Assembly (NCBI GenBank): GCA_050997725.1
Contig: JBPCQV010000077.1
Location: 1-33,881 of the forward strand
Length of the DNA stretch: 33,881 nt
Origin: Acidimicrobiia bacterium
Lineage (GTDB): Bacteria; Actinomycetota; Acidimicrobiia; Spongiisociales; ZC4RG35
Reading direction: 5' to 3'
A model generated the notes under the pieces. The model ran no database searches, was not told where the DNA came from, and was given only the letters and a program-made list of their open reading frames with translations. Below, piece after piece: positions 69 to 29,214 of this stretch. A program made the translations under genes and the position numbers. Each line of letters starts with the position of its first letter. Position 1 is the first letter of the stretch.

Positions 69-90
69 AAACGGGAGAGGGGATGAGTCT

Positions 91-4201: not shown

Positions 4202-4213
4202 CGACGGCCGTTC

Positions 4214-5938: not shown

Positions 5939-6922
5939 TTGCCCTCCGTGCCCAACACTGACTCACCCGCCCCCATCTTCATCGTGGGATGCGGGCGCTC
6001 AGGGACGACGATGCTCCGTCTCATGATGGATTCACATCCCGACTTGGCCATTCCCGGCGAATCACATTTCATTGTGAACAAGTACCGACATCAGCAGAGC
6101 TATTCGGTCGATGGACAGTTTGACAGCGACGTGCTACTCAAGCAGATCACCGCGTCCCCTCATTTCAAAAGGTGGGAGATACCCGCGGACCTGGTATTCG
6201 AGCGAGCCGGAGGCGCCAAGCTGCTGGGGTTTGCCGACACGATTGCCCACCTATTCAAGGTGTATGCGTTGGTGCATGGCAAGACTCGGTGGGGCGACAA
6301 GACTCCCATGTATGTGAAGTCGATCGGTCTTCTGGCGGAGCTGTTCCCGACGGCGCAATTCGTCCATATCATTCGTGACGGCCACAATGTGGCGCTTTCA
6401 TATCTCAGCGTTCCGTGGGGTCCGCGCTCGATATGGGAGGTGGCCCGCAAGTGGAAAGTCGACGTCGGCGCAGGTCTCAAGGCGGGCCGGCCGCTGGGGC
6501 CGGCGCGTTACATGGAGCTCCGGTATGAGGACTTGGTCGCCGACCCCACAGCGGAGCTGCAACGCATCTGTGATTTCGCTCATCTCGAGTTCATCCCAGC
6601 GATGCTCGATTTCCACGAAGACGCGGCCGGGCGACTGCAAACCCCCTATGAAGACTTTCATCAGTCTGCGACGAGGGCTCCCGAGCGCGGCATTCGCGAT
6701 TGGATCACCGAGATGAGTGAGGCGGACATCCTTGCCTTCGAGGCGGTGGCGGGGGGATTGCTCTCCGACCTGGGCTACAGCCGCAGGTTCGACTCGATAC
6801 CGATGCGGACGCTTGCCAAGGCTAAAGCACAGGAGATCAAGCTCTCTGCTCAGGTGGCGGGGAGCCGGTTCCGGCGCACGGTCCAGTTCAGTCGGGGCGT
6901 CAGACAATCTCCTCTGGACTAG
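5939..6922 (+). CDS. sulfotransferase (Sulfotransfer_3/Stf0-like type)
   Basis: PAPS 5'-phosphosulfate loop GCGRSGTTML, 3'-phosphate motif IIRDGHNVALSY, and YEDLVADPTAELQRICDFAHLEF. It is a paralogue of 16963-17952. The ORF is open from 5822. TTG 5939 (GAAAGG 8 nt upstream) or GTG 5948 are more plausible starts, so the start is uncertain. Confidence 0.8.
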   Translation: MPSVPNTDSPAPIFIVGCGRSGTTMLRLMMDSHPDLAIPGESHFIVNKYRHQQSYSVDGQFDSDVLLKQITASPHFKRWEIPADLVFERAGGAKLLGFADTIAHLFKVYALVHGKTRWGDKTPMYVKSIGLLAELFPTAQFVHIIRDGHNVALSYLSVPWGPRSIWEVARKWKVDVGAGLKAGRPLGPARYMELRYEDLVADPTAELQRICDFAHLEFIPAMLDFHEDAAGRLQTPYEDFHQSATRAPERGIRDWITEMSEADILAFEAVAGGLLSDLGYSRRFDSIPMRTLAKAKAQEIKLSAQVAGSRFRRTVQFSRGVRQSPLD

Positions 6923-6930
6923 GTCGCCCC

Positions 6931-7533
6931 ATGGCCCCGGGTCCCAAGGTGTTTTGCATCGGTTTTCACAAGACTGGCACGACCAGCCTGGCACTGGCCC
7001 TACGCCAACTTGGGTACTCAGTCACCGGCCCAAACGGAGTCAACGATCCGAAGATCGCCGAGAACGTGCACACGATGGCCTATGCATTGGTGGAAAAGTA
7101 TGACGCCTTCCAGGACAATCCGTGGCCTCTCCTCTACAAGGAGCTCGACGCCCGGTTTCCAAACAGCAAATTCGTTCTGACCGTGCGCCCCACAGACGCC
7201 TGGATCCGGAGCCAGGTGCGGCACTTCGGTGCCGCCGAGACTCCGATGAGGCAGTGGATCTACGGTGTCGGCGCTCCCGAGGGGAATGAATCTCTCTACG
7301 TTGAGCGCTACGAGAGCCATAACCGGGAGGTGCAGTCCTACTTCAAGGACCGGCCCAACGATTTGCTCGTGATGGATCTCGGCGCCGGCTACGGCTGGGA
7401 GAAGCTCTGCGCCTTCCTTGGCAAGCCAGTTCCGACGGAACCGTTTCCTCACGCCAACAGCTCCAAGGATCGAGAAAAGCGTAATCGCTTAGGTCGGCGC
7501 ATCCTTCACCGGCTCGCCAAGCTCGGGCGATGA
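6931..7533 (+). CDS. sulfotransferase family protein (Sulfotransfer_4-like)
   Basis: 200 aa. N-terminal KVFCIGFHKTGTTSLALALRQLGY is the P-loop-like PAPS motif typical of the small sulfotransferase family. It starts 8 nt after the previous sulfotransferase gene. Confidence 0.7.
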   Translation: MAPGPKVFCIGFHKTGTTSLALALRQLGYSVTGPNGVNDPKIAENVHTMAYALVEKYDAFQDNPWPLLYKELDARFPNSKFVLTVRPTDAWIRSQVRHFGAAETPMRQWIYGVGAPEGNESLYVERYESHNREVQSYFKDRPNDLLVMDLGAGYGWEKLCAFLGKPVPTEPFPHANSSKDREKRNRLGRRILHRLAKLGR

Positions 7534-7553
7534 GCCTCGGTTAACCCACAAAA

Positions 7554-7590
7554 GGAAGCTGCGCCCTGCCAACTACAGGGCGCAGCTTCC
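7554..7590. terminator. bidirectional intrinsic-terminator-like hairpin between convergent genes
   Basis: Perfect 15-bp inverted repeat GGAAGCTGCGCCCTG / CAGGGCGCAGCTTCC with a 7-nt loop. It sits between the + stop at 7533 and the - stop at 7608 and is preceded by AAA. Confidence 0.7.
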
Positions 7591-7607
7591 TGGTCGAAAC
7601 CCCTGGA

Positions 7608-8615
7608 CTACATATCAGAGCTCATCACCACGCTCGGCGAGATGCTTTCGTAGTAGACCACGATCACCGGGTTGCCCCATTCGTAAGCAACCACAGTTAT
7701 CTGCCCAGAGGCTGACTCCGTCTGTTGAAAGGTAATGCCCGGGCCAGGGACGAGGGTCTTGTAGTTCCTCACTTCCAGCAGCTGGCCGGACGGGGTCGAG
7801 TATTTGATGGTTGGACGCTGATCTGCACCGGTGTGCGGCTCGTAGGCGACGTTCGGCTCCGGGCACTGGCCGAGCTCTTGGGGGGCGTTGGCTGGAGCGA
7901 GCGTGCCGTCGTAATACCTTTCGCCTTCCACCATCCTTTCGTCAGTCACCATTCCATAGGAAGCGGCTCCATCAACCCGCATGAAGGTGACACGACCCAC
8001 AGGCACCCCGTCCAAGGTGAGGAACCCGTAGAGGCAGCGGTAGCCGGCGCGGTCGCCATCGGTCCAACCGGTGGCGAGTCCGTACGGCAGGGAGCGCATA
8101 TACACCGCGTTCCACCAGGAACGGTTCGGCCCGTTGTCCACAATGGCTCCCAACATGACGGTCCAGTGCTCACCGGATGGCACCGGAAGTGTTGTGGAGC
8201 TGGTCGGTGGAGGCGCGGTCGTTGTCGTCGTTTCCGATGGCCGAGTCGTCGTCGTCGCCGGTGGGGCGGTGGTGGTCGTCGCCGGTGGGGCGGTGGTGGT
8301 CGTCGTGACGATTGTCGTCGTGCTGGCGGTCGTGGTTGTGCGCAAAGTCGTCGTTGTCGGTGGCAACGTCGTCTCCGGCGCGGTGGTGTTCGGCGGTTGC
8401 TTGGGTCTGGTCGTGGTTGTCGCTTGCGGTCGATCGCGATCTCGCCTACGGATATCCATCCTCTTCGCGTCGAGCCGCTCAACCCTGGCGCCGGCAACCG
8501 CAACGCCCGCTGATTGTTGCTCCTTCGTTTGAGCAAGAGAGCCGCCAACGCCGGCGATTCCCATGATCATCAGAGAAACGACAATGAGTGCGCCAGCTGC
8601 GCGTATTGCGTTCAT
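7608..8615 (-). CDS. secreted or membrane-anchored protein with mucin-like Thr/Pro-rich linker and globular C-terminal domain
   Basis: ATG 8615 is preceded by GGAGAGGGAG. The hydrophobic N-terminus is MNAIRAAGALIVVSLMIMGIAGVGG. An approximately 80-aa stretch (nt 8184-8423) is dominated by T, P and A. The C-terminal approximately 190 aa have ordinary composition. The ORF extension to 8681 was rejected. Confidence 0.7.
   Translation of the reverse strand: MNAIRAAGALIVVSLMIMGIAGVGGSLAQTKEQQSAGVAVAGARVERLDAKRMDIRRRDRDRPQATTTTRPKQPPNTTAPETTLPPTTTTLRTTTTASTTTIVTTTTTAPPATTTTAPPATTTTRPSETTTTTAPPPTSSTTLPVPSGEHWTVMLGAIVDNGPNRSWWNAVYMRSLPYGLATGWTDGDRAGYRCLYGFLTLDGVPVGRVTFMRVDGAASYGMVTDERMVEGERYYDGTLAPANAPQELGQCPEPNVAYEPHTGADQRPTIKYSTPSGQLLEVRNYKTLVPGPGITFQQTESASGQITVVAYEWGNPVIVVYYESISPSVVMSSDM
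8251..8298. repeat. 24-bp perfect tandem duplication inside the Thr/Pro-rich coding region
   Basis: GTCGTCGCCGGTGGGGCGGTGGTG occurs twice in tandem. On the minus strand this encodes the duplicated TTTTAPPA unit. Confidence 0.6.
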
Positions 8616-8843
8616 ATATTCTCCCTCTCCGTACCACTCCACTTGCGCTCTCCCGAGCCCGGAGTTCCCTTTCGGCACCAAAGGCTGGACCCTTAATAGT
8701 TCTCAAGTGCTATGGGAAATACTGGCCAGCTGGTCTTGGCAGAATCCTCAAGGTGGCAGGTTGCAGGTGAGCCAAATGACCCGCCACGCGACAAACTTGT
8801 CCACATCTGTTCGTCACCCGAGAATTTGCGGAGCGTCTATTTC

Positions 8844-10427
8844 CTAGCCGAAAGCGCGGTGCAAGAACGCTGCCATCTGGCCCCGAGTTACGAGCTCCGT
8901 GGGGCAAAAGCGAGCGTTGGGTGGAGGAGCGCAACCGAAGGTGATGCCGGCGGCGGCGACCTTGTCGATATCTGTTTCGAACACCGACCCGTCGTCATCG
9001 GTGAAGAGATCTCCTCCACCGTCGTCCATGAGGTTGAGCGCCCGCGAGAGGAACGCGACCATCTCGCCGCGGGTGACGAGCCCCCCCGGACAGAAGAGCG
9101 CGTTGGGAGGCGGCTGGCAACCGGTGGTGATGCCGGCCGTGGCGATCTTGTCGATGTCGTTCTCGAAAATCGAGGTGTCGTCGTCACCGAAGAGATCCCC
9201 GCCGCCGTTGTTGACGAGGTTGAGCGCCCGGGAGAGGAACGCGGCCATCTCGCCGCGGGTGACGAGGCCATTGGGACAGAACAGAGCATTGGGAGCCGGC
9301 TTGCACCCGTTGGTGATGCCCTGATCGGCAATCCAGACGATGTCGGCGGCGAACGGCGAGCCGCCAATGTCAATGAAACCGGTGGGGAGGGGTCCGCTGC
9401 CACAGGCGACTCCGGCGGCTAAGAACCATGGACAGGACGTCGGGGCCGAGATGAAGTGAGCGAGGAGCATGGCGGCGTTTTTGGCCTCGCCGCTCGCGGA
9501 CGGATGGATGCCGTCATCCTCGTAGTCGGCGCATAGCCATTCGAGGCCGTCGGCGCGCCCAGCCTGCCCTCCGGGAGCGTCGTCCGCCCCCAGGCCGTTC
9601 GCCCATACGTATGGGCCCCACGCGAGCCACGGCGCCACCACTGGACCGGCCGCGGAGTTGGCGTTGAGATTGCCGACGCCGCTGATCTGGTCCTGGATGG
9701 TCCATTTGACACCAAAGCCTTCCTCGAAAGCGATGGGCTCGATGTCGGGATGGTCGACCCCGTAGCCCGTATAGAAGAGGCTGGTGAGGTAGGCGAGCCG
9801 GACGTTGGGAAACTGGGTTTTCAAATTCCGGAGGACGATCTCGAGCTTGTCGCGGTAGCTCCATTGCTCCGTTGGGAATGGAAGCGGAAGCGGGTTGCGG
9901 TCGGGAAGCATGACCCAGGCCACTTGGACCTGCGCGGGTGTGGCGCCGGCACTGCCAACCCGCGTATCGACTTCGGCCCAGGTTGAAGCCGAGGGGTCCA
10001 ACCAAGAATCGATTGGCTCGCCACCGATACCACCGTTGACCAGGACGACGGAAGGGGAGACTCGCGAATCGCCTGCGGCCAAGGAGACGAATGCCCCAAA
10101 GTCCTGGGCAGCGTTGGAGACTCCGATGGACACAAGGACGACCTGGCCGGCGGGGTCGGGATTGCCGCTGGCGTCGAGAGGCTGCACCTGGCCGGCCAGA
10201 CTGAGCCCCAAAGACGCCTGGCCGGCCGGGATCGAATTGGAGCCGCCTGGATAAAGCCCACCTTGCAGCCCCTGGTAGGTGCCCGTGCCAAGGTCGGGGA
10301 GCGCGGTGAGGCCGGGGAGGAAGCTGTTGGAGCAGATGGCGGCCTGGGCGATGCCTGCCGGGCCTGTCCAACCAACCAGCCCCATCACCAAAGCCAGAAG
10401 CGTCGAGGCGAGACGCGGGAACCTCAC
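8844..10427 (-). CDS. secreted SGNH/GDSL-like esterase with three C-terminal SLH-like repeats
   Basis: Signal peptide MRFPRLASTLLALVMGLVGWTGPAGIAQA. SGNH-like blocks are VSIGVSNA, VNGGIGGEP and DGIHPSASGEAK. The C-terminal 177 aa form three 53-54-aa repeats. Confidence 0.75.
   Translation of the reverse strand: MRFPRLASTLLALVMGLVGWTGPAGIAQAAICSNSFLPGLTALPDLGTGTYQGLQGGLYPGGSNSIPAGQASLGLSLAGQVQPLDASGNPDPAGQVVLVSIGVSNAAQDFGAFVSLAAGDSRVSPSVVLVNGGIGGEPIDSWLDPSASTWAEVDTRVGSAGATPAQVQVAWVMLPDRNPLPLPFPTEQWSYRDKLEIVLRNLKTQFPNVRLAYLTSLFYTGYGVDHPDIEPIAFEEGFGVKWTIQDQISGVGNLNANSAAGPVVAPWLAWGPYVWANGLGADDAPGGQAGRADGLEWLCADYEDDGIHPSASGEAKNAAMLLAHFISAPTSCPWFLAAGVACGSGPLPTGFIDIGGSPFAADIVWIADQGITNGCKPAPNALFCPNGLVTRGEMAAFLSRALNLVNNGGGDLFGDDDTSIFENDIDKIATAGITTGCQPPPNALFCPGGLVTRGEMVAFLSRALNLMDDGGGDLFTDDDGSVFETDIDKVAAAGITFGCAPPPNARFCPTELVTRGQMAAFLHRAFG
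8847..9377 (-). repeat. three tandem SLH-like domain repeats (coding)
   Basis: Three copies of F-x-D-x(5-7)-F-x-x-D-I-x(5)-GIT-x-GC-x(4-7)-FCP-x(3)-VTRG-x-M-A-FL-x-RA. Units are joined by GGGDL-containing linkers. Confidence 0.7.
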
Positions 10428-10543
10428 TGGTTCACTCTAAAGGGTCGGAATGCTCAGGAAACCTCGTAGACATGCAAGAGGCCGCTGGGTAGAGTCCCGG
10501 TCCTAGCAAACTGCTGGTGGGGTGGGAAACTAGGTTCGTGCAA

Positions 10544-10561
10544 GGGTCCGTTGGGTCCGTT
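10544..10561. repeat. tandem 9-mer in the divergent intergenic region upstream of the carrier-protein operon
   Basis: GGGTCCGTT GGGTCCGTT, about 90 nt upstream of GTG 10651, within the lower-GC 223-bp intergenic region 10428-10650. Confidence 0.5.
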
Positions 10562-10650
10562 ATGCGAGCAGCCGGGGTTTCGATTTAATCGTTTCCTGGG
10601 CCGTTGTTTTAACCTTCCCGCCTCGATTCAGACAAGGAGGGTGACCGAAG

Positions 10651-10893
10651 GTGGCATCGATAGAGGATCAGATCAAAGAGCACATCATCTCTGAGTTCAA
10701 TGCGAGCGCCGACCTCTCCGACGAGACTCGACTGATTGACACCGAGGTCATTGACTCTCTCGGGATCTTTCTGTTGGTCAACTTCCTCCAAGATCGATTT
10801 GGAGTCGAGGTCGACCCTGAGGAGGTGACGCTCGAGAACTTCGAGTCCGTTTCGGCAATGGCAGGGCTCGTGTCCAGCAAGCGCCCCGCGTGA
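10651..10893 (+). CDS. acyl/peptidyl carrier protein (phosphopantetheine-binding)
   Basis: 80 aa, acidic. The DSLG phosphopantetheine attachment motif lies in EVIDSLGIFLLVNFLQ at the expected position. AAGGAGGG RBS lies 8 nt before GTG 10651. Confidence 0.85.
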   Translation: MASIEDQIKEHIISEFNASADLSDETRLIDTEVIDSLGIFLLVNFLQDRFGVEVDPEEVTLENFESVSAMAGLVSSKRPA

Positions 10894-11561
10894 CAGCTCG
10901 ACTTGGGGGCCAGCCCCAATTGCGGGTGTTGGCGGTCGGCGGCGCCGAGCTGATCGACCTGGTCGCATCTCGGGAGGATGGCGGAACCAAGCTGACGAAG
11001 GGCTTGGCCGAGAAGGTGACTGACGATTTCGACGGTAAGTACAAGGTCGAGCTCGAGAGCCGGGCGGGGGCGACAGCGGCCGAGCTAGTCGCCGATCTGG
11101 CCGGTCTGCAGGCCGACCCCCCCGATGTTGTAGTTCTCTCCCTGCTGCCAGACGTGGTCGCCGCCGGCCGGCTCGACGTGGAAACCTTTCGAGCAGCGCT
11201 CCGGGCCTTGTGCGTCTCCCTCAAAGAGGCGGGTTCCTACGTGTTGATCGCCAATGTGTCGACCGTCGACAGTGCAGACACTGTGACCAATTACTTCGGA
11301 TGGTCGGGAGACTCCCCGAACCTGCGCGCTCACAAGGTGGCGTCAACCATTCTCGATCTTTCCAACCAGCTCGGCATCTCGGTTATCGATTCCGATCGCT
11401 TGCTCGCCGAGATCGGCGCCCACGGACATGTGGAATCCCTCGGCCACTATTCCGCCGATGCCTCGGCCGTGATCCGCGACGAGATCTATCGGATACTGGC
11501 CGACTACGGCTTTTTCGAGGAGCGACCGTTGATGGCTCAGGCGGGGGCGAAGCAGCGATGA
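10890..11561 (+). CDS. hypothetical protein, SGNH-hydrolase-like fold suspected (non-canonical catalytic blocks)
   Basis: 223 aa with a GTGA overlap onto the carrier gene. The block order resembles SGNH enzymes: RVLAVGGAE, DVVVLSLLPDV, YVLIANVS and LGHYSADASAVIRDEI. The block-I Ser is absent. Confidence 0.55.
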   Translation: MTARLGGQPQLRVLAVGGAELIDLVASREDGGTKLTKGLAEKVTDDFDGKYKVELESRAGATAAELVADLAGLQADPPDVVVLSLLPDVVAAGRLDVETFRAALRALCVSLKEAGSYVLIANVSTVDSADTVTNYFGWSGDSPNLRAHKVASTILDLSNQLGISVIDSDRLLAEIGAHGHVESLGHYSADASAVIRDEIYRILADYGFFEERPLMAQAGAKQR

Positions 11562-11983
11562 TCCTCCTTCTGCGGGTGCCTTACCTCGAGAAGTTCGCTC
11601 GTGCGGGCAGGGTCGCCACCTGGCACGTCGGCGTCGGGGCCGCGGTCGGGTTTGGCGACCAAATCTGCGACATCTCGCTGAGCTCATGGATGGCCTTGCG
11701 CAAGACCAAACGGGCTCACAAGCTGGTTCAGTTCGACGCCAAGGCCAAGAACCGCAACCAGTTCGAGGTCCGGCAGGGCGAAGACATGCTCGTGATGAGA
11801 GTTGTGGCCTCCGAAAGTGGATACTTGCGTGAGATCATTGCTCGGGAGGGCCACACGGTGGTTCTCGACGACTTGATGGCGATATTCAGCACCGAGCCTG
11901 AAGAATCGTTGCCGGCGGACTCGTCAGACGCCACCAGCATGCGAGTGGTGGCAAACGCCTTGGAAGTAGAGGAAACGGGATGA
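11558..11983 (+). CDS. hypothetical protein with lipoyl/biotinyl-like hybrid-barrel signature
   Basis: 141 aa from ATG 11558, with ATGA overlaps at both ends. RVPYLEKFARAGRVATWHVGVGAAVGFGDQICDI ... GYLREIIAREGHTVVLDDLMAIF resembles a lipoyl domain. The ORF-track extension from 11210 overlaps the upstream gene and was rejected. Confidence 0.5.
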   Translation: MILLLRVPYLEKFARAGRVATWHVGVGAAVGFGDQICDISLSSWMALRKTKRAHKLVQFDAKAKNRNQFEVRQGEDMLVMRVVASESGYLREIIAREGHTVVLDDLMAIFSTEPEESLPADSSDATSMRVVANALEVEETG

Positions 11984-12996
11984 CCGCGGTGGAAAAGGCC
12001 CTGAAAGGGGGGGTCAAGATCGTCCGCCGGGTGGTTGGCCCGAACGGCAAGCTGGAGCGCTTCGTACGCGACAAGTACTTGCGCGGCCAGCGGGCCAAGA
12101 TCACGAAAGAGAGCGGCCCTGGCTGGGTTCAGCAAAGCGGGGGAAACTTCGTCGTGATGAAATCGACCAAGGACGACGGATCCCGCACCGGAATCGTGCT
12201 CCGCGGCGGCTGCGACCTGCCTTCGATCTTCGTGTCGGCGCCAATGCTTCGTCAACATCTAAAAGGCACCCTGGCGATCTACAAGGACCAATACGGCGGT
12301 CAGGCCGGCGCCAGCAGCACCCGCCAAATGCTCCAGACGCTCGACGGGATCCCGGCCGAGCATCTTGACGAAGCCCGACGGCGACTAAAGCTCGGCGCCC
12401 GGGTGTTCGAGCCGCACATCTTCTCCCCAGAGCCCTTTTCGATCCATCGCTCGCCAGAGTTCGGGACCTTTCCCAAGGATGTGATCGTGCTGTCCAACGG
12501 CTCCGACCTGACGAGGACGCTCCATCGCCACAAGGAGCATGGCTACCTGGTTGACCTCGGCGGTTTGTGGCTTCACCAGTCGCTGGAGAAGGCCATCCAG
12601 GACACGGACACACTCAACTGGTTCAAGAAGAACTTCGAGAGCGTTGGCAGAATCAGGGTTGATGACTTCTACGCCAACATGGGCAGGCTCATCGCGGCCC
12701 TCCGCGAGCGCTCCAAGGCCCACGTCGTGGTGCTCAACTCGCTCGTCATCGACCCGTCGAAGCCGGTTCACAACTACCAGCTGATGAACAACGCTCACAG
12801 CCGGCGGCGGCGTGAATTTCATCTCGCTCTCGCCGAGCTCTCTCGAAACATGGACTTTCACATCATTGACGTGGACCGGGCATTGAAGGGTGTGGGCGTC
12901 CGCGAGCAGATCGACTTCGTTCATTTCCCCGTCGAGGGAATGATGCCGATCGCCGAGCAGGCCTACCGAGTCCTCCGGGAGCTGGAAGTCGTTTGA
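11980..12996 (+). CDS. hypothetical protein, second SGNH-like protein
   Basis: 338 aa. Candidate blocks are DVIVLSNGSDLTR, HVVVLNSLVIDP and IDFVHFPVEGMMPIAEQAYRVL. It is translationally coupled at both ends. Confidence 0.55.
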   Translation: MTAVEKALKGGVKIVRRVVGPNGKLERFVRDKYLRGQRAKITKESGPGWVQQSGGNFVVMKSTKDDGSRTGIVLRGGCDLPSIFVSAPMLRQHLKGTLAIYKDQYGGQAGASSTRQMLQTLDGIPAEHLDEARRRLKLGARVFEPHIFSPEPFSIHRSPEFGTFPKDVIVLSNGSDLTRTLHRHKEHGYLVDLGGLWLHQSLEKAIQDTDTLNWFKKNFESVGRIRVDDFYANMGRLIAALRERSKAHVVVLNSLVIDPSKPVHNYQLMNNAHSRRRREFHLALAELSRNMDFHIIDVDRALKGVGVREQIDFVHFPVEGMMPIAEQAYRVLRELEVV

Positions 12997-15616: not shown

Positions 15617-15709
15617 CGAACTCCCCTACTCGCCACCGTCAAATCTTACCTCCATTCCTGCGTAAAAACCCTAGGAAAAAAGAGCGCCACGTTACGCAAG
15701 AATGGATTT

Positions 15710-16852: not shown

Positions 16853-16962
16853 GGACCGCTGTCTAGCTAATTCGGCACCAGCGATGCGGTTTCCGGCGCG
16901 CTAGTACCAAAGAACGTTCTAGGCGTCCCCCACCTGCCGAATTTGGGGGTCCGGGAAGGGCT

Positions 16963-18682: not shown

Positions 18683-18687
18683 GTCTG

Positions 18688-19545
18688 TCAATATCCGCTC
18701 AGCACCCCGAGCTGGCGCCCGTAGTTGAGGGCGCGGCCCCAAACCCAGATCGCGAGTGGATAAGCCACCGCCGAGAAGATGACCAGGGTCCAGATCAACG
18801 TCGGGGTCGACAGTCCAGTGGCGAAGTCTCCGGGGGCGAGCGCCCGACGAAGTCCCTGGATGACGTAAGTCTGGGGGAGGGCGTAGGACAGCAAGCGCAA
18901 AGGCTCGGGGAGGTCGGTAATCGGAAAATAGACGCCGGAAAAGATCTGCGCAGCGAGCGTGTAGAGGTGGAGGATTGGATCGCCGCTCTTGGCGAGCACT
19001 TTGACAGCCGCAGACAATGTGCCGATCGCCAAGCCGGAAATCAATCCCAAGGCCCCGATCAGGAGGGCCAACGGGATGCCGGAGGCGTTGAAATCCGCTC
19101 CCAACAGGATCGTCACGCCAATGGTGGTCACGACCGCGAACAGACCCTGGGCGATTGGCCACTGCGACATCGCGATCGGCAGGTAACGCCAGCGGACCGG
19201 CTCGACGAGAAACATCTCCAGCCAGCCGCGCTGGATAGCCATGTCCATCTGCAGCCCGAAACCGCGCAGACCCGAGTCGAGAATCTTGACCCCCAGCAGC
19301 CCGATGACGACCGAGGTGAAGTAGTCACTGCCAAATCCTTGGCTGGGATTGTTCACCTGCGTGGCGACGAAGAAGAAGACGAAAACGGGCACGAAGTTGG
19401 AGAGCTGGGTCATGATGAAGCCCAGCGGATAGCTGATTGCTTGTCGCCAGCCGAGAACCATGAACGCGTTGCTGGCAGCGATCAAGCGCGAAACCGGGTT
19501 CTCCCGCCGACGATCTCGCAGGTGGGTGGTAGCGGTAGTAGCCAT
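18688..19545 (-). CDS. ABC-2 type polysaccharide/teichoic-acid export permease (Wzm/TagG-like)
   Basis: 285 aa with about 6 hydrophobic spans and a basic N-terminus. Its ATG overlaps the stop of the upstream ATPase gene at 19545. Confidence 0.8.
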   Translation of the reverse strand: MATTATTHLRDRRRENPVSRLIAASNAFMVLGWRQAISYPLGFIMTQLSNFVPVFVFFFVATQVNNPSQGFGSDYFTSVVIGLLGVKILDSGLRGFGLQMDMAIQRGWLEMFLVEPVRWRYLPIAMSQWPIAQGLFAVVTTIGVTILLGADFNASGIPLALLIGALGLISGLAIGTLSAAVKVLAKSGDPILHLYTLAAQIFSGVYFPITDLPEPLRLLSYALPQTYVIQGLRRALAPGDFATGLSTPTLIWTLVIFSAVAYPLAIWVWGRALNYGRQLGVLSGY

Positions 19546-20684
19546 CAGGCTTGGATTGGCTGTTCGGCGCGCTCGATGAGGATCTTGGCAAGCAGCTCGC
19601 GAAGTGGCAGCCGCACCTCTTGCATGGATTGAACTCCGCTCAGTTGCCCGTTGGCTTGACTGAAGATCTTGCCGAGGCCGAGCGAGGTGGCCACCGTGAG
19701 CACATCACCATCGACCTCGACGACCTCGACGTCGTGCATCTGGTCGAGAACCTTGGCAGCTCGCTGGCATTCGGCTTCGGCGTGAAAGCGGATCTCCATG
19801 CGCGGCTGATCCCAAAGCCGGCGCAGGCTGTCGAGGTCCCCCCGGTACCTAATCAGGCCATCGTCGATGAGCACGACGTCGTTGTGCAATGCCTCGATCT
19901 CCTCAAGACGATGGGAGCTGATCAAGGCGGCGGAGCCTTGTTCGGCGACGGCCTGCTTGATGAGCTCCAGAAGCTCGTACGCGGCGATTGGATCGACAGA
20001 GGAGGTGGGTTCGTCGAGGATCAGAACCCGAGGACGATGGAGGAGCGCCCGGGCAAGCTGCAAACGTGCCTTCATCCCGGTCGAGAGGGCGATGCCTACG
20101 CGGTCGGCGGCGGGACCCAATCCGACGAAATCGAGGGTTTCGCTGACCCTCTTCTGGAGGTCCTTGCGCGATATGCCTTGGAGCTGGCCGTGGAAAACCA
20201 GGTTCTCCCGACAGGTGTTGCGCAGGAGCAAGGAGGAGTCGTCGGCCGGTGCAAATCCGATCAAGCCCCGGACTTCATGCGACCTGGTGGTGGTATCGAG
20301 GCCACACACAAAGGCGCGTCCGGTTGTTGGGGTGTTGAGACCGGTAAGGACTCGAAACAGGGTCGACTTGCCGGCGCCGTTGGGACCCACCACCGCCAGA
20401 ATCTCGCCGGCCTTGACGTCGATGCTGCAGTCTTCCAACGCGACCACCGGGAACCGGATTGACGACCTGAGCAACACTTTCATCCAAGGGGGCGAGGGAA
20501 CATAGACCTTCGACACCTTCTCGGTCACCACCAAGGCGTCAGTCGCCAAGGTGGGTGTCGGCCGCCTCGGCTTCTTGACCGCCGCTGCCCGCAAGATCGC
20601 GTTAGCACGAGCGATCTTCTCCGGGTCGTGGGCTCGTTTGACGCCGCGCGACGCCCTAGTCCCGGTTTGTTTGAATCGAGCCAT
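19545..20684 (-). CDS. ABC transporter ATP-binding protein (Wzt/TagH-like) with N- and C-terminal extensions
   Basis: Walker A GPNGAGKSTL, signature LSTGMKARL, Walker B VLILDEPTSSVD, and H-loop SSHRLEE. It has an approximately 45-aa basic N-terminal extension and an approximately 110-aa C-terminal domain. Confidence 0.9.
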   Translation of the reverse strand: MARFKQTGTRASRGVKRAHDPEKIARANAILRAAAVKKPRRPTPTLATDALVVTEKVSKVYVPSPPWMKVLLRSSIRFPVVALEDCSIDVKAGEILAVVGPNGAGKSTLFRVLTGLNTPTTGRAFVCGLDTTTRSHEVRGLIGFAPADDSSLLLRNTCRENLVFHGQLQGISRKDLQKRVSETLDFVGLGPAADRVGIALSTGMKARLQLARALLHRPRVLILDEPTSSVDPIAAYELLELIKQAVAEQGSAALISSHRLEEIEALHNDVVLIDDGLIRYRGDLDSLRRLWDQPRMEIRFHAEAECQRAAKVLDQMHDVEVVEVDGDVLTVATSLGLGKIFSQANGQLSGVQSMQEVRLPLRELLAKILIERAEQPIQA

Positions 20685-20690
20685 TTTTGT

Positions 20691-22043
20691 CTACCCCTTA
20701 ACCAGTTCGAATGGCCTCGGCGCCGGCACCGTTTCGGGAGCAGGTGCCGGCTCGACCGCCTCCTCGACGTGCTTGCGGCCCAGGACGATCAAAAGCGCGA
20801 GGAAAAGTGGCATCACTTGTGACCGCTGCCGGGCAAGGATCCCCAGGTTGAGAATCGCGCTGAAGGCGAGGATGAACCCCCCGGAGTAGAAGAAGGCGTA
20901 CATGAGATAGGGATAACGCCGCAGACGGCGCAAGTTGCCGATGATCCATGGCAGACGCAATACGAAGATCAACAGGAGAATGGTTCCTTCGATGCTGGCG
21001 ATCAACAAAGGAGCGGAGTCAGCCTCGTTGGGGAGCGGCCGGAAAATAACCCGCAGGATCGCCTCGGGGACGTCGGCGATGCTCGTAACTGCTCCCCCGG
21101 AAACGGCGGACCCGCCCCGGTCGGTCTGCCCCTCCACCTGTGAGAAGACATCTCCGACCTCGTCGGTCGCCGAATCCGCGGAAGCCGCGGCAGCCAAGTC
21201 GACTCCGAAGTCCTGCGCGGTAAGCACGACAACCAGCACCAGGGCGACGGTGGCCGATCCCAAGAGAAGCACCCGGCGGGCCTGGGGGCTCCTCACCCGT
21301 GGGGCCCTTGCCAGGAGCAACGCGAGCACCATGCCAATGGCGAGAAGCAGCGTCATGTGCAACCTGATGATCCCGGTCCCGGCGAGGCCGATGATGATCA
21401 GTCCTGCCCACGCGGGGTTGTAATTGGAAAAGAGCCGGGCGGCCCCATAGGAGGCAATTCCGATCCAAAGCAGCATCAGCGACTCCTTGCCGATGCTGGA
21501 CGGCCAGTAGACGATTGTTGGCGAGAAGAAGATCGCGGCTGCGTACCACTTGAGGTGGCGCTGCGGAAGCGCGTGCCGGAAAGCGGCATACAAGAGGAGT
21601 TGACCGAAGAACGCCAATGAGGCAAAGATGAAGAACCCGCCCAGCATCGAGGGTTGATAAGGCACGTAGAGAAGCCCGGTGGTGGCCTCGACCACATCGG
21701 TGCCGATGCGTTGCACCGTCGTCGGCACCTCGAATGATCGCCAGCTATCCGAGAGCCTCAATCCCGCTCCGTGGTAGCCGGTGGCGTCTCCCCGGCCATT
21801 GTAAATGAGCACCAAAACCAGATAGCGGGTCGTCGACCCGACGAGCTTGGCGATGAACGCGACCATCACGACGACCGGGAGCCACTTGCTGTCCTTGGGC
21901 GAGGCCATCGACCATCCAATGAGCGCTACTACCACGAAGAAGAAAAGCCCAATAATCGTCGTACCCCAAGGTGAGCCACCTGCGCTTGGGGCCTCGGCGA
22001 CCGTAGATGCCAGAGGCGCGGCAAAGTCACTCCAAGCGGTCAT
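20691..22043 (-). CDS. polytopic integral membrane protein (candidate polymerase, ligase or GT-C-like)
   Basis: About 450 aa from ATG 22043 (GAGGAAA upstream) with 10 or more hydrophobic spans. It is the first gene of the exporter operon, 6 nt from the ATPase start. I recognise no motif securely. Confidence 0.6.
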   Translation of the reverse strand: MTAWSDFAAPLASTVAEAPSAGGSPWGTTIIGLFFFVVVALIGWSMASPKDSKWLPVVVMVAFIAKLVGSTTRYLVLVLIYNGRGDATGYHGAGLRLSDSWRSFEVPTTVQRIGTDVVEATTGLLYVPYQPSMLGGFFIFASLAFFGQLLLYAAFRHALPQRHLKWYAAAIFFSPTIVYWPSSIGKESLMLLWIGIASYGAARLFSNYNPAWAGLIIIGLAGTGIIRLHMTLLLAIGMVLALLLARAPRVRSPQARRVLLLGSATVALVLVVVLTAQDFGVDLAAAASADSATDEVGDVFSQVEGQTDRGGSAVSGGAVTSIADVPEAILRVIFRPLPNEADSAPLLIASIEGTILLLIFVLRLPWIIGNLRRLRRYPYLMYAFFYSGGFILAFSAILNLGILARQRSQVMPLFLALLIVLGRKHVEEAVEPAPAPETVPAPRPFELVKG

Positions 22044-22271
22044 GGGGTATTTCCTCGAACAAACAACAGCGACTCCTCGGGTTCCCGGCCCGTTGGCGAA
22101 GTTACCACGGACAGACCCTCTCGATAAAGGGGTTGTTGTGCCTATCCGCTGGTGAGAGGATTCAAAAAACCCCTCTAGCCTTGTCAATCATCCTGAGTAA
22201 TGTTCCTTCGCAAGGGAGCTATACGGGGAAAGGGCCGGGCTGATGAGTGATCGAACGATAGTTGCAAAGAT

Positions 22272-24236
22272 TTGGGCAGGAGACCTGTCCGCGACGCGGA
22301 GGTCTTCGCCGTGCTGACCCGACTAGGCAGGCTTCTGCGACAGCGCTGGCTGATCCTGGCAGTAGTCGTAATAGCGGTCACGGCGGGGGGCGTGTTCGCG
22401 ACGGATTACTTCAACGACCAGCTCAAGCAAACGGTCGAGGCCACTGCGATCGTGAGCCTGGACGACGGGCCGACCACTTCGGACTCGGGAAGGCAGGCGA
22501 CCGAGCCTTCGGCCAACCTCACCGAGGCCCAAGACATGGCGCGGGAGGCCAACGAGGGGTTCTTGGATGAGACCCACGTGGTGAAGACCGATCCGGCGAC
22601 CAACAGCCTCGAATTCATTGCCATTGCCCGGACTGCGGAAGAAGCAACATCGGACGCTTCCGACTTACGAAACCGCTACCTGGTGGCGGTTGCGCCTCCG
22701 CCCATCGAGGATCGGATGGAGGCTGTGCTCGCCCAAGCTGACTTCGTGCAACGACAGCTCGAGTTGTTGTCGCCGGAGGCGCCGCCCATCCTCGTCAATG
22801 ATCCGGCGGTTGAAACCCAACGACAGCTGCTCACAAGCCAAATCCAGTCCCTCACGTCCGAGAGGGCTAATTTGGAGGTTGACCTGGTCCTCGCCGCGAC
22901 AGACAGCGAACTGGATGCAGAGGACATCCAGGCCGACATCGATGCGATTGAGGCACAGATCGTGGGCCTGACCGCGGAGCTGAATGCGCTGCCGCCACCC
23001 GTCGATGGGTCCACAGGGACCGGCCGCGGCGACACCGAGACGCCCGCGGAAGAGCCCGGTCGAACGGACCCCGCGGTCCCGATCGATGGGCAGCCGGTCG
23101 AGAACCGATTCCAAATCGACAGCCTCGAGTCGCTGTATGCAGATCTCCAGGCCGAGTTCCAAGCGCTCTATATCCGAAGCGTGAGCGGCGAGCTCGAGAC
23201 GCTCCCCGAGATCGAAGCCCTCGACACGAGCGGCGAGCCCGTGGCGACCTTGCTCGGCGGAGGCATCGGCCTCGCCCTTGGCCTCCTGATCGCCCTCAGC
23301 GCAATCATCCTCTTCGACCGCTTGCTCCCGCGCTGGTGGACCGAGAACGACATGAAGCAGCCGCTGGCCGAGGTCCCCGACCGTCGCAGCGGCGGCTTGG
23401 AGACTTGGTATTGGACGACGGGGCCGAGCCCGCGGAAGGAAGCGGTGCAGAAAGTAGCCGTGAACCTCTTGCCGTTGCTGGAAGCTGGGCCGGCCGCCGT
23501 TGGCCTCGTCGGGGTGGGTGTAAAGCCCCGCGCCATAAGAGGCCTGACAACCGACTTGGCTGGGACCGTCGTGACGTCCGGCCGTTCGAGCCTCGTCGTC
23601 GATACGACCGGGCTCGAGAACCACGCCAAAAAGCCGGACCCCGAAGCCGTCCCCTGGGAGGGGCCGAGCCTCGGAGACTTGCTCAACCCGTGGCAAAACG
23701 GCCGCAACGAGGATCGAGTCGAGCGGGCCGTGGCCGGCGCGCGCAGGCTGTGGCCAGGACTATCCGCCCTGCCATCGGGCGCGGGCTCGCTCTACTCAGT
23801 CGAGGGAGCGATGACGCCCGTCGTTGGCCAACTCGTCGAGACCGCCCGAGGGTCTTACGCGTTGACGGCAGTCTCGGTTGCCGATCGTGGAACCGCTCTG
23901 TCGGACGCTTTTGTTCGCAAGCTCGATTCCGTGGTGATTGTCGGACGAAGCGGGAAGACCAGGCTGCGCAGCGCCGAGAAACTGATGGATCGGCTGGTCG
24001 CCTTGGGCTATCCCGTCTTGGGATCGGTTCTCATCGTTCGACCCACTCGGAGACCGCTTCGTCAGCTCCTGCGATCCCTCTTTGGAAAGAGGCGGCTGTC
24101 GGCCCGACCTGGGGCCACCAGGAGAAGGCAGACGTCCGCGACGCCGGTTTCCTCCAACGGTGCGACTGCGCCTCATGAAGAAGCCGTCGTCGACGTTCGC
24201 GAACCGGTCGAGGAGACTTCTGCCTCAGCCTCGTAG
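22272..24236 (+). CDS. polysaccharide co-polymerase (Wzz/PCP-like) with degenerate BY-kinase-like C-terminal domain
   Basis: TM1 is LRQRWLILAVVVIAVTAGGVF. A long acidic coiled-coil-like periplasmic region follows, then TM2 LLGGGIGLALGLLIALSAIILF. The cytoplasmic domain is collinear with BY-kinases but lacks Walker A. The start (TTG 22272 or GTG 22311) is uncertain. Confidence 0.7.
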   Translation: MGRRPVRDAEVFAVLTRLGRLLRQRWLILAVVVIAVTAGGVFATDYFNDQLKQTVEATAIVSLDDGPTTSDSGRQATEPSANLTEAQDMAREANEGFLDETHVVKTDPATNSLEFIAIARTAEEATSDASDLRNRYLVAVAPPPIEDRMEAVLAQADFVQRQLELLSPEAPPILVNDPAVETQRQLLTSQIQSLTSERANLEVDLVLAATDSELDAEDIQADIDAIEAQIVGLTAELNALPPPVDGSTGTGRGDTETPAEEPGRTDPAVPIDGQPVENRFQIDSLESLYADLQAEFQALYIRSVSGELETLPEIEALDTSGEPVATLLGGGIGLALGLLIALSAIILFDRLLPRWWTENDMKQPLAEVPDRRSGGLETWYWTTGPSPRKEAVQKVAVNLLPLLEAGPAAVGLVGVGVKPRAIRGLTTDLAGTVVTSGRSSLVVDTTGLENHAKKPDPEAVPWEGPSLGDLLNPWQNGRNEDRVERAVAGARRLWPGLSALPSGAGSLYSVEGAMTPVVGQLVETARGSYALTAVSVADRGTALSDAFVRKLDSVVIVGRSGKTRLRSAEKLMDRLVALGYPVLGSVLIVRPTRRPLRQLLRSLFGKRRLSARPGATRRRQTSATPVSSNGATAPHEEAVVDVREPVEETSASAS

Positions 24237-24282
24237 GTTCGGGACCACACAGGTCCTGGACCTGGTGCGAGAACGAATCCCG

Positions 24283-25125
24283 ATGCCGGCTCGCCGGCGA
24301 TTGGCTCGCTGGTGGGTAACCGCTCGCCGGCCAACCAGTTTTCTGCGCGAGCTGCCGGATTTCTTGATCGTCGGGGCGCAACGGTGTGGGACGAGTTCGC
24401 TCTATCGCTACCTCGGTCAGCACCCATCGATCACGCCGTCGATCAGGAAGGAAGTTGAGTTTTTCTCGATTCGGTACTCCGAGGGCGTTGATTGGTACAA
24501 GTCGCACTTCCCGGTCCGAAGCGGTCGTAGCCTCACCTTCGAAGCCACCCCCGACTACCTGCTCCACCCCTTGGCCGCGAAGCGGGCTGCGGAGCTGATT
24601 CCTGACGCCCGGATCATCGTGATGCTGCGCGACCCGGTCGCCCGAGCCTTTTCCCAGTATCTGCACAACCTCCGCCTCGCGCACGAAGAGCTCTCTTTCC
24701 CCGAGGCACTCGAGGCGGAAGGGACGAGGATCGCGGGGGAGCTGGAGAGGTGCCGGGTCGAGCCGGCATTCAAGGCCACCAGCCTCAGACGTCACGGATA
24801 CATCGAGCGGGGCAAGTATGACGTGCATCTGCTTCCCTGGCTGGAGCATTACCCCCGAGAGCGAATTCACGTGGTGCGCTCGGAGGACTTCTTCGTGTCG
24901 CCTGAGCGGGTGTACAACGAGGCGGTGGAGTTCTTGGGCCTCCCCCCATTTCAGCCAAACGAGTTTCGGAACTACAGCTTACGCCGCGCGACCCCGGTCA
25001 CCCTCGATGAGGAGGCGCCCAAGCTCGGACCGGACACGGCCGAGCGTCTAGGTCAACTGTTCGAGCCGCATAGCCGTCGAGTCGAAGAGCTGCTGCAACG
25101 GGACTTCGGCTGGCAGCTGGCGTAG
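24283..25125 (+). CDS. sulfotransferase (Sulfotransfer_1-like, paralogue of 17909-18682)
   Basis: Motifs are LPDFLIVGAQRCGTSSL, KEVEFFS and MLRDPVARAFSQYLH. The start is trimmed to ATG 24283 because the ORF-track start at 24082 overlaps the PCP gene. Confidence 0.8.
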   Translation: MPARRRLARWWVTARRPTSFLRELPDFLIVGAQRCGTSSLYRYLGQHPSITPSIRKEVEFFSIRYSEGVDWYKSHFPVRSGRSLTFEATPDYLLHPLAAKRAAELIPDARIIVMLRDPVARAFSQYLHNLRLAHEELSFPEALEAEGTRIAGELERCRVEPAFKATSLRRHGYIERGKYDVHLLPWLEHYPRERIHVVRSEDFFVSPERVYNEAVEFLGLPPFQPNEFRNYSLRRATPVTLDEEAPKLGPDTAERLGQLFEPHSRRVEELLQRDFGWQLA

Positions 25126-29151: not shown

Positions 29152-29214
29152 AAAGGCGCGAAATCCGGGTGTCGCTATATTGGCCGCGGGCGTGGACTGA
29201 GAGGGAGCGTGCGC

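Follow-up and report, generated by a model that had tools for sequence, protein, structure and literature searches.

The 33,881-nucleotide contig JBPCQV010000077.1 of an Acidimicrobiia bacterium (assembly GCA_050997725.1), here called the window, carries six sulfotransferase genes between positions 5,939 and 25,125. Our analysis indicates that the window is probably one copy of an Acidimicrobiia locus type whose product would be a multiply sulfated glycan of the cell envelope, made by a route that depends on an ATP-binding cassette (ABC) transporter. The glycan locus fills the whole contig and extends beyond the 5.9-25.1 kb stretch of the sulfotransferases; the window has about 62% G+C and a high coding density. 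Parts of it were assembled independently from run SRR33880242 and gave the same gene calls, the sixth sulfotransferase (ST6) being called there as 280 amino acids (aa).

Six sulfotransferases of four sequence types

Every sizeable open reading frame (ORF) of the window was scanned with Pfam profiles at their curated gathering scores, and six sulfotransferases (ST1-ST6) were found, given here with strand, Pfam family and E-value.

5939-6922, plus: ST1, Sulfotransfer_3, 2.7e-42
6931-7533, plus: ST2, Sulfotransfer_4, 1.6e-38 (200 aa)
12993-13895, plus: ST3, Sulfotransfer_3, 9.7e-12 (divergent)
16963-17952, minus: ST4, Sulfotransfer_3, 2.9e-32
17909-18682, minus: ST5, Sulfotransfer_1, 2.4e-13
24283-25125, plus: ST6, Sulfotransfer_1 and Sulfotransfer_3, about 2e-16

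All six exceed the gathering cut-offs of 22-27 bits with scores of 46-146 bits, which excludes chance matches. The six genes named in the original prediction, which had been made from the DNA letters and their translations, are therefore all present, and they fall into Sulfotransfer_1, _3 and _4 and not into other P-loop families. No seventh sulfotransferase was found by Pfam among the sizeable ORFs of the window. Each of the six is a full-length ORF with its cofactor-binding motifs intact, that is, a 5'-phosphosulfate-binding (5'-PSB) loop resembling (K/R)xGT(T/S) and a 3'-phosphate-binding (3'-PB) R...S motif for 3'-phosphoadenosine 5'-phosphosulfate (PAPS). The loop motifs quoted earlier could all be located in the translations: GCGRSGTT and IIRDG(H/R) are common to ST1 and ST4, LPDF(V/L)IVG...G(T/S)(T/S)(A/S)L and (I/M)LR(N/D)P..RA(Y/F)S to ST5 and ST6, the loop of ST2 reads GFHKTGTTSL, and ST3 has SDKSSGSS and VRDPMDTIYS. 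Pairwise BLAST resolves four sequence types where at least three had been proposed, namely ST1/ST4 (39% identity), ST5/ST6 (31% identity), and ST2 and ST3, which each stand alone. None of the six has a hydrophobic N-terminal signal or membrane anchor, the sole flagged segment being internal (ST5 residues 87-105).

ST3 belongs to a small subfamily of 270 clusters (E ≤ 0.001) among 1.84 billion representatives. K17, G20, S21, R153 and S161 are invariant in 22 aligned members, and since the odd SDKSSGSS loop is kept within the subfamily it does not represent decay.

Acceptors suggested for the six enzymes

ST5 and ST6 are significantly similar over their full length to the sulfotransferase (NST) domain of the heparan-sulfate N-deacetylase/N-sulfotransferase (NDST) and to the heparan-sulfate 3-O-sulfotransferase (3-OST). 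The PDB matches of ST5 are the bacterial sulfotransferase 3rnl (5.4e-28), NDST (9e-23) and 3-OST (6e-21), and those of ST6 are 3rnl (1.9e-28), 3-OST (8e-22) and NDST (1e-21). The KE(V)xFF catalytic motif is kept as KEVHFF in ST5 and as KEVEFF in ST6. Sequence similarity thus directly supports a glycan acceptor for these two enzymes only. ST1 is closest in the PDB to the CurM/OLS sulfotransferase (6.6e-14) and to tyrosylprotein sulfotransferases (TPST, about 1e-12), with a sub-threshold NCBIfam match to the Nod-factor sugar sulfotransferase NoeE. The nearest solved relatives of ST2 are the small-molecule sulfotransferases SgdX2, 9kf1 and the schistosome oxamniquine sulfotransferase, and the PDB matches of ST3 are marginal only. 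For ST1-ST4 we infer a glycan acceptor from operon context and conservation.

The description of all six as carbohydrate sulfotransferases is accordingly retained for ST5 and ST6, which resemble heparan-sulfate enzymes; the nearest solved relatives of ST1, ST4 and ST2 act on non-carbohydrate acceptors, so that for the complete set the description follows from context. That several paralogues would mean sulfation at several positions agrees well with what was found, since a locus for glycan assembly and export that holds six sulfotransferases from several families is most economically read as one that sulfates its product at several positions. The word dense had to be given up, as the number of genes cannot show the density of sulfation. 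The proposed glycosaminoglycan (GAG)-like nature of the product is borne out only in part, by the resemblance of ST5 and ST6 to heparan-sulfate enzymes, but no uronic-acid or GAG-synthase genes accompany them: neither a glycosyltransferase of GAG-synthase type (GT2 or GT45, KfiA/KfiC/HAS-like) nor a UDP-glucose dehydrogenase was detected by Pfam among the window genes. The transferases of the window are of GT4 and WecA type only, together with a LegC/PseC-type 4-aminotransferase and a GNAT enzyme.

Proteins 52-70% identical to ST2 come from lineages as far apart as Gammaproteobacteria, Planctomycetota, Kiritimatiellia including Pontiella, Chloroflexota, cyanobacteria, Deinococcota and an archaeal metagenome-assembled genome (MAG), and in these loci (L002-L081) a second sulfotransferase often lies a few kb away. 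The sequences suggest a function of ST2 that is strongly conserved and horizontally mobile.

Glycan assembly, export and surface genes

Apart from the sulfotransferases and the genes of the halopyrrole-type cassette and carrier-protein operon listed further below, the following genes were recognised; the names are family matches in Pfam unless stated otherwise.

7608-8615, minus: Thr/Pro-rich membrane-anchored protein (78% T+P+S over 60 residues; one N-terminal transmembrane segment)
8844-10427, minus: secreted S-layer homology (SLH) domain protein A (SLH repeats; N-terminal signal-like sequence)
13892-15616, minus: beta-helix protein of CEMIP type, putative glycan hydrolase or lyase (CEMIP_beta-hel, 4.6e-10)
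15710-16852, plus: GT4 glycosyltransferase a (Glycos_transf_1, 7.3e-20)
18688-19545, minus: Wzm-type ABC-2 permease (ABC2_membrane, 1.8e-10)
19545-20684, minus: Wzt-type ABC ATPase (ABC_tran, 5.8e-30)
20691-22043, minus: probable GT-C-fold membrane protein, 450 aa, hallmark of the locus type (AlphaFold model and Foldseek)
22311-24236, plus: co-polymerase-like protein, 641 aa (coiled region between two transmembrane segments; degenerate C-terminal P-loop domain)
25210-26091, plus: NAD-dependent sugar epimerase/dehydratase (Epimerase, 1.2e-50)
26091-27236, plus: GT4 glycosyltransferase b (Glycos_transf_1, 4.6e-32)
27229-28167, plus: GNAT acyltransferase (Acetyltransf_9, 5.6e-11)
28168-29151, minus: WecA/MraY-family polyprenyl-phosphate N-acetylhexosamine (HexNAc)-1-phosphate transferase (Glycos_transf_4, 9.7e-24; at least nine hydrophobic segments)
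29152-30963, plus: SLH-domain protein B (SLH, 9.6e-09; true start somewhere after 29152)
30994-31935, minus: carbohydrate esterase family 4 (CE4) polysaccharide deacetylase (Polysacc_deac_1, 3.2e-20; N-terminus not hydrophobic, no signal peptide)
32146-33285, plus: LegC/PseC-type sugar 4-aminotransferase (DegT_DnrJ_EryC1, 3.7e-90; TIGR04181, 347 bits against a cut-off of 420)

The adjacent permease and ATPase genes, which overlap by 1 bp, the Glycos_transf_4 initiator and the lack of any match to the Polysacc_synt (Wzx) or Wzy families among the window ORFs together characterise an ABC-transporter-dependent pathway; a Wzt_C domain was not reported by the Pfam scan of the ATPase. From the gene junctions we recognise the operons GT-C-Wzt-Wzm-ST5-ST4, co-polymerase-like-ST6-epimerase-GT4-GNAT and ST1-ST2, so that ST4, ST5 and ST6 share operons with transport and assembly genes. 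The interleaving of the sulfotransferases with glycosyltransferase, exporter and co-polymerase genes is thus as originally described, with two GT4 enzymes, a permease with its ATPase and the 641-aa co-polymerase-like protein. The only family match of the last is a weak one to the EpsG tyrosine kinase (NCBIfam, 0.0045). By NCBIfam the CE4 deacetylase is PgaB/IcaB/HfsH-like, below the cut-offs, and SLH protein A matches the SLH-repeat region of a NEAT/LRR protein model (4.1e-12).

The N-terminus of the beta-helix protein (RRAFLK...ATAC) resembles a twin-arginine (Tat) signal with a possible lipobox after it. The animal protein CEMIP depolymerises hyaluronan, and the link of this family to GAG turnover is a curious side observation.

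Conservation in related Acidimicrobiia loci

Genomic context was fetched around genes homologous to the GT-C gene and to the SGNH gene described below. The same gene set, rearranged, was found in eight loci (L003, L083/84, L085/86, L087/88, L089, L090, L091 and L092/93), the named records among which are all Acidimicrobiia, L003 being an Acidimicrobiia MAG. The left half of the nearest relative, L092/93, is co-linear with the window. The shared set comprises the GT-C protein, the co-polymerase-like gene with its adjoining ST6-type gene, Wzm/Wzt, GT4, epimerase, GNAT and WecA, and also the CE4 deacetylase, the beta-helix protein and SLH proteins. Identities to the window are 57-58% for GT4 a (L083, L085), 51-69% for the Wzm permease (L083, L085, L089), 68-74% for the epimerase and 48-54% for the CE4 deacetylase (five relatives). 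Homologues of SLH protein A occur in L089 (52%), L091 (44%) and L092, and of the beta-helix protein in L087 and L089, the L089 copy being fused to SLH; the SLH genes of L089 lie at 7876-9948 and 16477-18039.

Sulfotransferases within 10 kb were counted in these loci.

L087/88 and L091: 1 each
L089: 2
L083 and L085: 3 each
L090: 4
L003: 6
window: 6

Five of the six in L003 were found by Pfam, including a Sulfotransfer_2, and one by iterative phmmer. Every related locus has at least one sulfotransferase, and sulfation is therefore conserved in this locus type; how many paralogues there are differs between loci, and the window stands at the top of the range. ST6 is the core conserved sulfotransferase, with orthologues in six of seven related loci, and its gene type stays, together with the GT-C gene, beside the co-polymerase-like gene. 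ST4 has orthologues of 42-54% identity in five related loci, L092 carries a 326-aa orthologue of ST1 at the same place, and five of the six enzymes have orthologues elsewhere (39-69% identity).

Downstream of the co-polymerase-like gene in two of the relatives (L087/L088, 3459-5251; L089, 3953-5664) the ST6-type gene and the CE4 deacetylase gene share an overlap of 4 bp, and by analogy the pair looks like a split N-deacetylase/N-sulfotransferase. The conservation of a CE4 deacetylase that lacks a signal peptide and this overlap make it plausible that the polymer contains the sulfamate named in the original prediction.

L083 (1871-6786 and 13445-14449), with L085 in the same layout, is a sister variant without ST1, ST2 and ST3, which instead has a gene for an APH-like kinase placed between Wzm and the sulfotransferase genes and, in addition, ADH/GFO oxidoreductases, two alpha/beta hydrolases and a carrier protein. 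From such gene content the decoration gene set of the locus type appears to be modular.

A probable GT-C-fold membrane protein as hallmark of the locus

The product of 20691-22043, which is 100% identical to NCBI MGI8517448.1, has no Pfam or NCBIfam match. Its alignment-based AlphaFold model (pLDDT 83, pTM 0.85) gave in Foldseek top PDB matches that are all GT-C enzymes (PglB, STT3, ArnT, AglB, AftD and PMT; probability about 1, TMq 0.40-0.49, E about 0.07). In the family alignment D86 is invariant and lies in a GDATGYH loop, and a few homologues carry PF13231 (PMT_2). The family is widespread in Acidimicrobiia and has hundreds of homologues; those that carry a source name are all from Acidimicrobiia, Acidimicrobiales or Actinomycetota, and the gene is present in every related locus examined. 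As judged from the model, the protein is probably a GT-C-fold enzyme that uses lipid-linked donors outside the membrane.

A halopyrrole-type cassette and a carrier-protein operon

Two gene groups of the window point to a decoration other than sulfate.

91-1488, minus: FADH2-dependent halogenase 1 (Trp_halogenase, 3.5e-19, Pfam), last gene of the operon halogenase 2-dehydrogenase-adenylation enzyme-halogenase 1
1485-3056, minus: stand-alone amino-acid adenylation enzyme, PltF-like (TIGR01733, 388 bits against a cut-off of 317)
3053-4201, minus: prolyl-carrier-protein dehydrogenase-like flavoenzyme (PDB, AnaB prolyl-acyl carrier protein dehydrogenase, 7.6e-130)
4214-5665, minus: FADH2-dependent halogenase 2 (PDB, CndH 2.7e-50 and PltA 5.9e-48; also ChlB4, CmlS and 5buk/5bva)
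10651-10893, plus: type II carrier protein of prolyl-carrier type, 80 aa (PP-binding, 24.9 bits against a cut-off of 20.8, Pfam)
10890-11561, plus: SGNH-fold protein, translationally coupled to the carrier protein (AlphaFold pLDDT 91)
11558-11983, plus: biotin/lipoyl-like protein, 141 aa (Biotin_lipoyl, 5.8e-07, Pfam)
11980-12996, plus: weak GDSL/SGNH-like protein, 338 aa (Lipase_GDSL_2, 3.2e-4, below cut-off)

Halogenase 1 has the motifs GxGxxG, WAWGIP (a WxWxIP motif) and FVDPIFSFG and a CmlS-like NCBIfam match below cut-off (1.9e-38), and halogenase 2 has WIWCIP and FIDPIFSSG; its matches 5buk/5bva we take to be Mpy16 and Bmp2. The adenylation gene, whose start overlaps the stop of the upstream gene by 4 bp, encodes a full-length match to PltF (L-proline-[prolyl carrier] ligase, 2.3e-104), and its motif-anchored specificity code reads D-L-F-Y-V-A-W-V-C-K, with proline as the putative substrate. 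The flavoenzyme also matches 6cxt_B (deposited as butyryl-CoA dehydrogenase, presumably Bmp3; 2.8e-98) and PigA (3.1e-92), the last with two entries, and these four best solved relatives we take to be prolyl-carrier dehydrogenases; by NCBIfam it scores 448 bits for PigA (cut-off 500), 416 bits for RedW (below cut-off) and 312 for the best generic acyl-CoA dehydrogenase model. The carrier protein was missed by a PROSITE-style scan for the phosphopantetheine motif and was found by tblastn with the carrier of L083. Its carrier serine lies in VIDSLG, and its nearest solved chains include PigG, PltL, CcbZ and the carrier chain of 6cxt, which we assume to be Bmp1.

By similarity, then, all component types of a halopyrrole cassette are present, namely an adenylation enzyme, a type II carrier, a prolyl-carrier dehydrogenase and a WxWxIP flavin halogenase; either a pyrrole or a pyrroline is conceivable as the end product. 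The original prediction had not included this cassette, the GT-C-fold protein or the SLH proteins, nor the extent of the locus over the whole contig and its conservation in Acidimicrobiia. The cassette adjoins the GT-C gene in L087/88, L089 and L091 and is co-linear in L092; that the linkage has outlasted rearrangement speaks for a functional tie between the cassette and the glycan locus. Genes 91-5665 had also been considered as unrelated fatty-acid metabolism or as geranylgeranyl reductases, a view overturned by the halogenase motifs, the PDB and NCBIfam matches and the conserved linkage. Our literature search found no description of a glycan locus with a halogenase or pyrrole cassette, the only papers that came up being two of a general kind, on PRISM and on decarboxylation.

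In the operon carrier protein-SGNH-biotin/lipoyl-like-GDSL-like-ST3 every junction is a 4-bp overlap. The carrier-SGNH-biotin/lipoyl-like-GDSL-like module is conserved (window 10890-12996, plus strand; L091 2912-5470; L092 9759-12110) and may be acyl-transfer machinery. The biotin/lipoyl-like protein has a counterpart at the same operon position in L091, L092 and L093, and the 338-aa GDSL-like protein has homologues in L090, L091 and L092. The SGNH-fold protein, whose family was seen only in Acidimicrobiia records, is similar in Foldseek to TesA, acetyl-xylan esterase and Iah1 (E 2e-7 to 1e-5). Its block I is GGAE, not GDS, and with the canonical GDS serine missing we do not assert that this protein itself is an acyl-transfer enzyme.

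A G/C-run inverted repeat (CCCCCCTCCCGGGGGGGAG...) lies in window 1-90 just downstream of the stop of halogenase 1, at the contig end, and may be a terminator or the cause of the assembly break.

Proposed pathway

The scheme given here builds on the gene families, the operons, their conservation and the lack of N-terminal signals and anchors, which were observed; the order of steps, the substrates and the products are our proposal. A WecA-type enzyme would start the chain on polyprenyl phosphate at the inner membrane face, and the GT4 enzymes would lengthen it with sugars made by the epimerase, the 4-aminotransferase and the GNAT enzyme. The cytoplasmic CE4 deacetylase may free amines by partial de-N-acetylation. 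The six soluble PAPS-dependent sulfotransferases would then sulfate different positions of the lipid-linked chain, which may include N-sulfation by the NDST/3-OST-like ST5 and ST6; this step is placed in the cytoplasm because PAPS exists only there. With ABC-dependent export, the polymer can be modified as a whole. The halopyrrole-type cassette probably supplies an acyl decoration from the carrier protein. Wzm/Wzt would export the finished chain with the co-polymerase-like partner, after which the GT-C-fold enzyme would complete or attach it outside the membrane and the secreted beta-helix glycanase would trim it.

The SLH-domain proteins encoded alongside suggest a wall-associated polymer and not a loose slime. 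No PS_pyruv_trans match, that is, no CsaB-type pyruvyl transferase, was found in the window or within 10 kb in the eight related loci, and with the recurrence of SLH proteins in these loci the sulfated polymer could be the wall ligand of the SLH proteins. The lack of a CsaB match in loci with SLH proteins raises the question of what the SLH ligand is. It is tempting to speculate further on a lineage-wide Acidimicrobiia glycopolymer that is assembled on polyprenol, exported by an ABC transporter, multiply O-/N-sulfated, acylated with (halo)pyrrole-carboxyl groups and installed by a new GT-C family, and that serves as an anionic SLH ligand in place of pyruvylated wall polymers or teichoic acids, but it is quite unlikely that all these parts hold together.

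Weighing of the alternatives

Several observations weigh against a multiply sulfated envelope glycan as the product. Acceptor specificity cannot be read from sequence, so that sulfation of the glycan by all six enzymes is inferred, and the nearest solved relatives of ST1 (and of ST4 by paralogy) and of ST2 are not glycan enzymes. ST3 ends the carrier-protein operon and does not lie beside a glycosyltransferase. As the original prediction had noted, the window has no genes for PAPS synthesis and no sulfatase: ATP sulfurylase, adenosine phosphosulfate (APS) kinase and sulfatase were all absent by Pfam, so that any route to PAPS would have to lie outside the window. Neither an LCP ligase nor an outer export component was seen in the window. 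For the hallmark protein, the sequence-profile search of the PDB gave a chance match only, and a Foldseek E of about 0.07 is weak for a GT-C assignment.

One alternative is a division of acceptors, in which ST5, ST6 and perhaps ST4 sulfate the glycan and ST1, ST2 and ST3 act on non-sugar acceptors; candidates are a (halo)pyrrole or acyl group, either still on the carrier or already transferred, and the tyrosines of co-encoded secreted proteins. We consider such a division possible, though on the unlikely side. It would fit the proximity of ST1 to CurM/OLS, which act on acyl-carrier-bound substrates, and to tyrosylprotein sulfotransferases, that of ST2 to small-molecule sulfotransferases, the transcription of ST1-ST2 divergently from the halogenase operon in both the window and L092, and the translational coupling of ST3 to the carrier-protein operon. 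However, ST1/ST4-type and ST2-type genes stand beside Wzm/Wzt and GT4 in L003, L083, L085 and L090 with no cassette within 10 kb, the partial NCBIfam match of ST1 is to a sugar sulfotransferase (NoeE), and the similarities in the PDB are moderate (E about 1e-13), a reflection of how broad the Sulfotransfer_3 family is. It is highly improbable that the number of genes overstates the diversity of sulfation through redundancy or decay, with several of the six inactive or redundant. The range of one to six sulfotransferases among related loci does imply that most copies are dispensable for the core pathway, the 5'-PSB loop of ST6 has Arg for the usual Lys, and the loop of ST3 is unusual; but Arg is normal at that position in the TPST-like Sulfotransfer_3 family, the ST3 loop is invariant within its subfamily, and both the intact full-length ORFs and the orthologues of five of them speak against this reading.

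A protein-linked glycan would result if the GT-C enzyme moved the sulfated chain onto an SLH/S-layer or the Thr/Pro-rich protein, as in ABC-dependent S-layer glycosylation, which we regard as unlikely. The oligosaccharyltransferases PglB, STT3 and AglB and also PMT are among the fold matches, PMT_2 is found on a few homologues, and the window also has genes for two SLH proteins and for a mucin-like Thr/Pro-rich protein. This similarity of fold cannot, however, tell oligosaccharyltransferase, ArnT and arabinosyltransferase types apart, and the GT-C protein, with 450 aa that are nearly all helical, lacks a large soluble oligosaccharyltransferase domain. The Thr/Pro-rich gene is absent from all related loci, including the closest, L092, where a 178-aa gene takes its place, so that its product as mucin-like acceptor of a PMT-like GT-C enzyme can be given low weight only. 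It is improbable that the locus makes no polymer but a discrete secondary metabolite, a pyrrole glycoside bearing sulfate and halogen that would leave the cell through the ABC transporter. The halopyrrole-type cassette is complete, and clusters for glycoside antibiotics can contain ABC exporters and sulfotransferases, one example being saccharomicin Sam10 (PMC13291958). Against this, WecA, Wzm/Wzt, the co-polymerase-like and GT-C proteins, CE4, the SLH proteins and a secreted glycanase are typical marks of loci that assemble envelope glycans, and the conservation of the locus in many Acidimicrobiia resembles that of a housekeeping trait of the envelope.

Comparison with known systems

ST5/ST6 and the animal heparan-sulfate NDST and 3-OST are of one fold family and have the 5'-PSB loop, the 3'-PB loop and KE(V)xFF in common, and the pairing of deacetylase and sulfotransferase genes in L087/88 and L089 mirrors the logic of NDST. 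In contrast to the bifunctional Golgi enzyme, however, these are separate cytoplasmic proteins with about 25-30% identity to the animal enzymes, the window deacetylase is of CE4 type, and neither a heparosan-type synthase nor uronic-acid genes are present in the window.

Mycobacterial arabinogalactan is made by WecA, cytoplasmic polymerisation, export by Wzm/Wzt (Rv3781/Rv3783) and then extracytoplasmic GT-C transferases. A polyprenyl-diphosphate-HexNAc primer, ABC export of a lipid-linked chain and a GT-C enzyme outside the membrane would be common to both systems; unlike the arabinogalactan locus, the window has no galactofuranosyl or arabinosyl transferase homologues and its GT-C family is unannotated, and arabinogalactan is not sulfated.

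All four component types of the pyrrole cassettes PltF-PltL-PltE-PltA, PigI-PigG-PigA and Bmp1-4 occur in the window, with these proteins among the top solved-structure matches. The window cassette differs in being embedded in an envelope glycan locus, with which it is conserved, and not in a polyketide synthase/non-ribosomal peptide synthetase cluster. Its carrier gene lies 5 kb off and shares an operon with genes for SGNH-fold proteins and a sulfotransferase, and the nearest match of its dehydrogenase is AnaB, an enzyme that stops at pyrroline.

In recent papers sulfated polysaccharides of bacteria are described as essentially cyanobacterial, and two sulfotransferases in one cluster as remarkable (PMC8205485, PMC13390465). 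The xss cluster for synechan in Synechocystis PCC 6803 has two, which was called unprecedented in bacterial extracellular polysaccharide clusters (PMC8205485). Like the window, xss and related cyanobacterial clusters combine distinct sulfotransferase subfamilies with a co-polymerase (PMC8205485), and in both systems sulfation must fall at the cytoplasmic, lipid-linked stage. The xss cluster is of Wzx/Wzy type with its two sulfotransferases, whereas the window has Wzm/Wzt, no Wzx/Wzy match and six sulfotransferases of four types, and beyond xss it has the GT-C protein, the SLH proteins and the halopyrrole cassette; the phylum also differs. The wps-1 cluster of Actinoplanes missouriensis (PMC13390465) is from the same phylum as the window and likewise serves a polysaccharide of the envelope or matrix; its two sulfotransferases belong to different families, and one resembles heparan-sulfate sulfotransferases. 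It is Wzx/Wzy/Wzz-dependent, no ABC exporter, GT-C hallmark or cassette being reported for it, and in both wps-1 and the window sulfation is predicted from the genes. Pontiella sulfatireligans makes a mostly N-sulfated polymer, and its candidate cluster for a putative sulfated GAG holds GT2/GT4, an aminotransferase and one PF13469 sulfotransferase (PMC7356697). This non-cyanobacterial organism carries a relative of ST2 with 66% identity (L048), but the cluster differs from the window in the single sulfotransferase, the phylum and the assembly machinery.

Bacterial glycan clusters with sulfotransferases are thus already known; the Acidimicrobiia variant is not described in the literature that we searched, and the search found nothing on envelope or S-layer glycans of Acidimicrobiia. 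The variant is set apart by ABC export, the GT-C hallmark, up to six sulfotransferases of four types, the association with SLH proteins and the halopyrrole cassette. Sulfated GAG-like polymers have been measured in granular sludge, anammox granules and mats, where the producers are not known (PMC7356697, PMC10483923, PMC9723792), and metagenomic surveys score sulfotransferases only as present or absent (PMC9723792). The Acidimicrobiia are a widespread and mostly uncultured actinobacterial class, and if the speculation on a lineage-wide glycopolymer were true they could be unrecognised producers of such polymers in sludge granules and mats. The locus provides candidates for producers of sulfated polymers and for bacterial N-/O-sulfotransferases in the enzymatic sulfation of glycans, and it points to an uncharacterised envelope architecture; a halopyrrole decoration, if coupled to the glycan, would be of a kind that we did not find described in the literature searched.

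Sulfotransferase numbers in a wider set of loci

The original prediction held that loci with so many sulfotransferases are uncommon. Among 91 fetched loci most have one or two sulfotransferase ORFs, and six credible genes were found only in the window and in the syntenic L003, which is in line with that statement; the sample is biased, being centred on relatives of ST2 or of the GT-C protein, and the counts are therefore indicative only. In this survey the merging of overlapping segments undercounts sulfotransferase genes that are truly adjacent. Apparent numbers of up to eight in Frateuria loci were discarded as inflated by overlapping same-strand segments in different frames; in L005, L007, L009 and L010 of Frateuria spp. 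these overlapping frames, at about 4000-10800, suggest frameshifted or fragmented genes or assembly errors.

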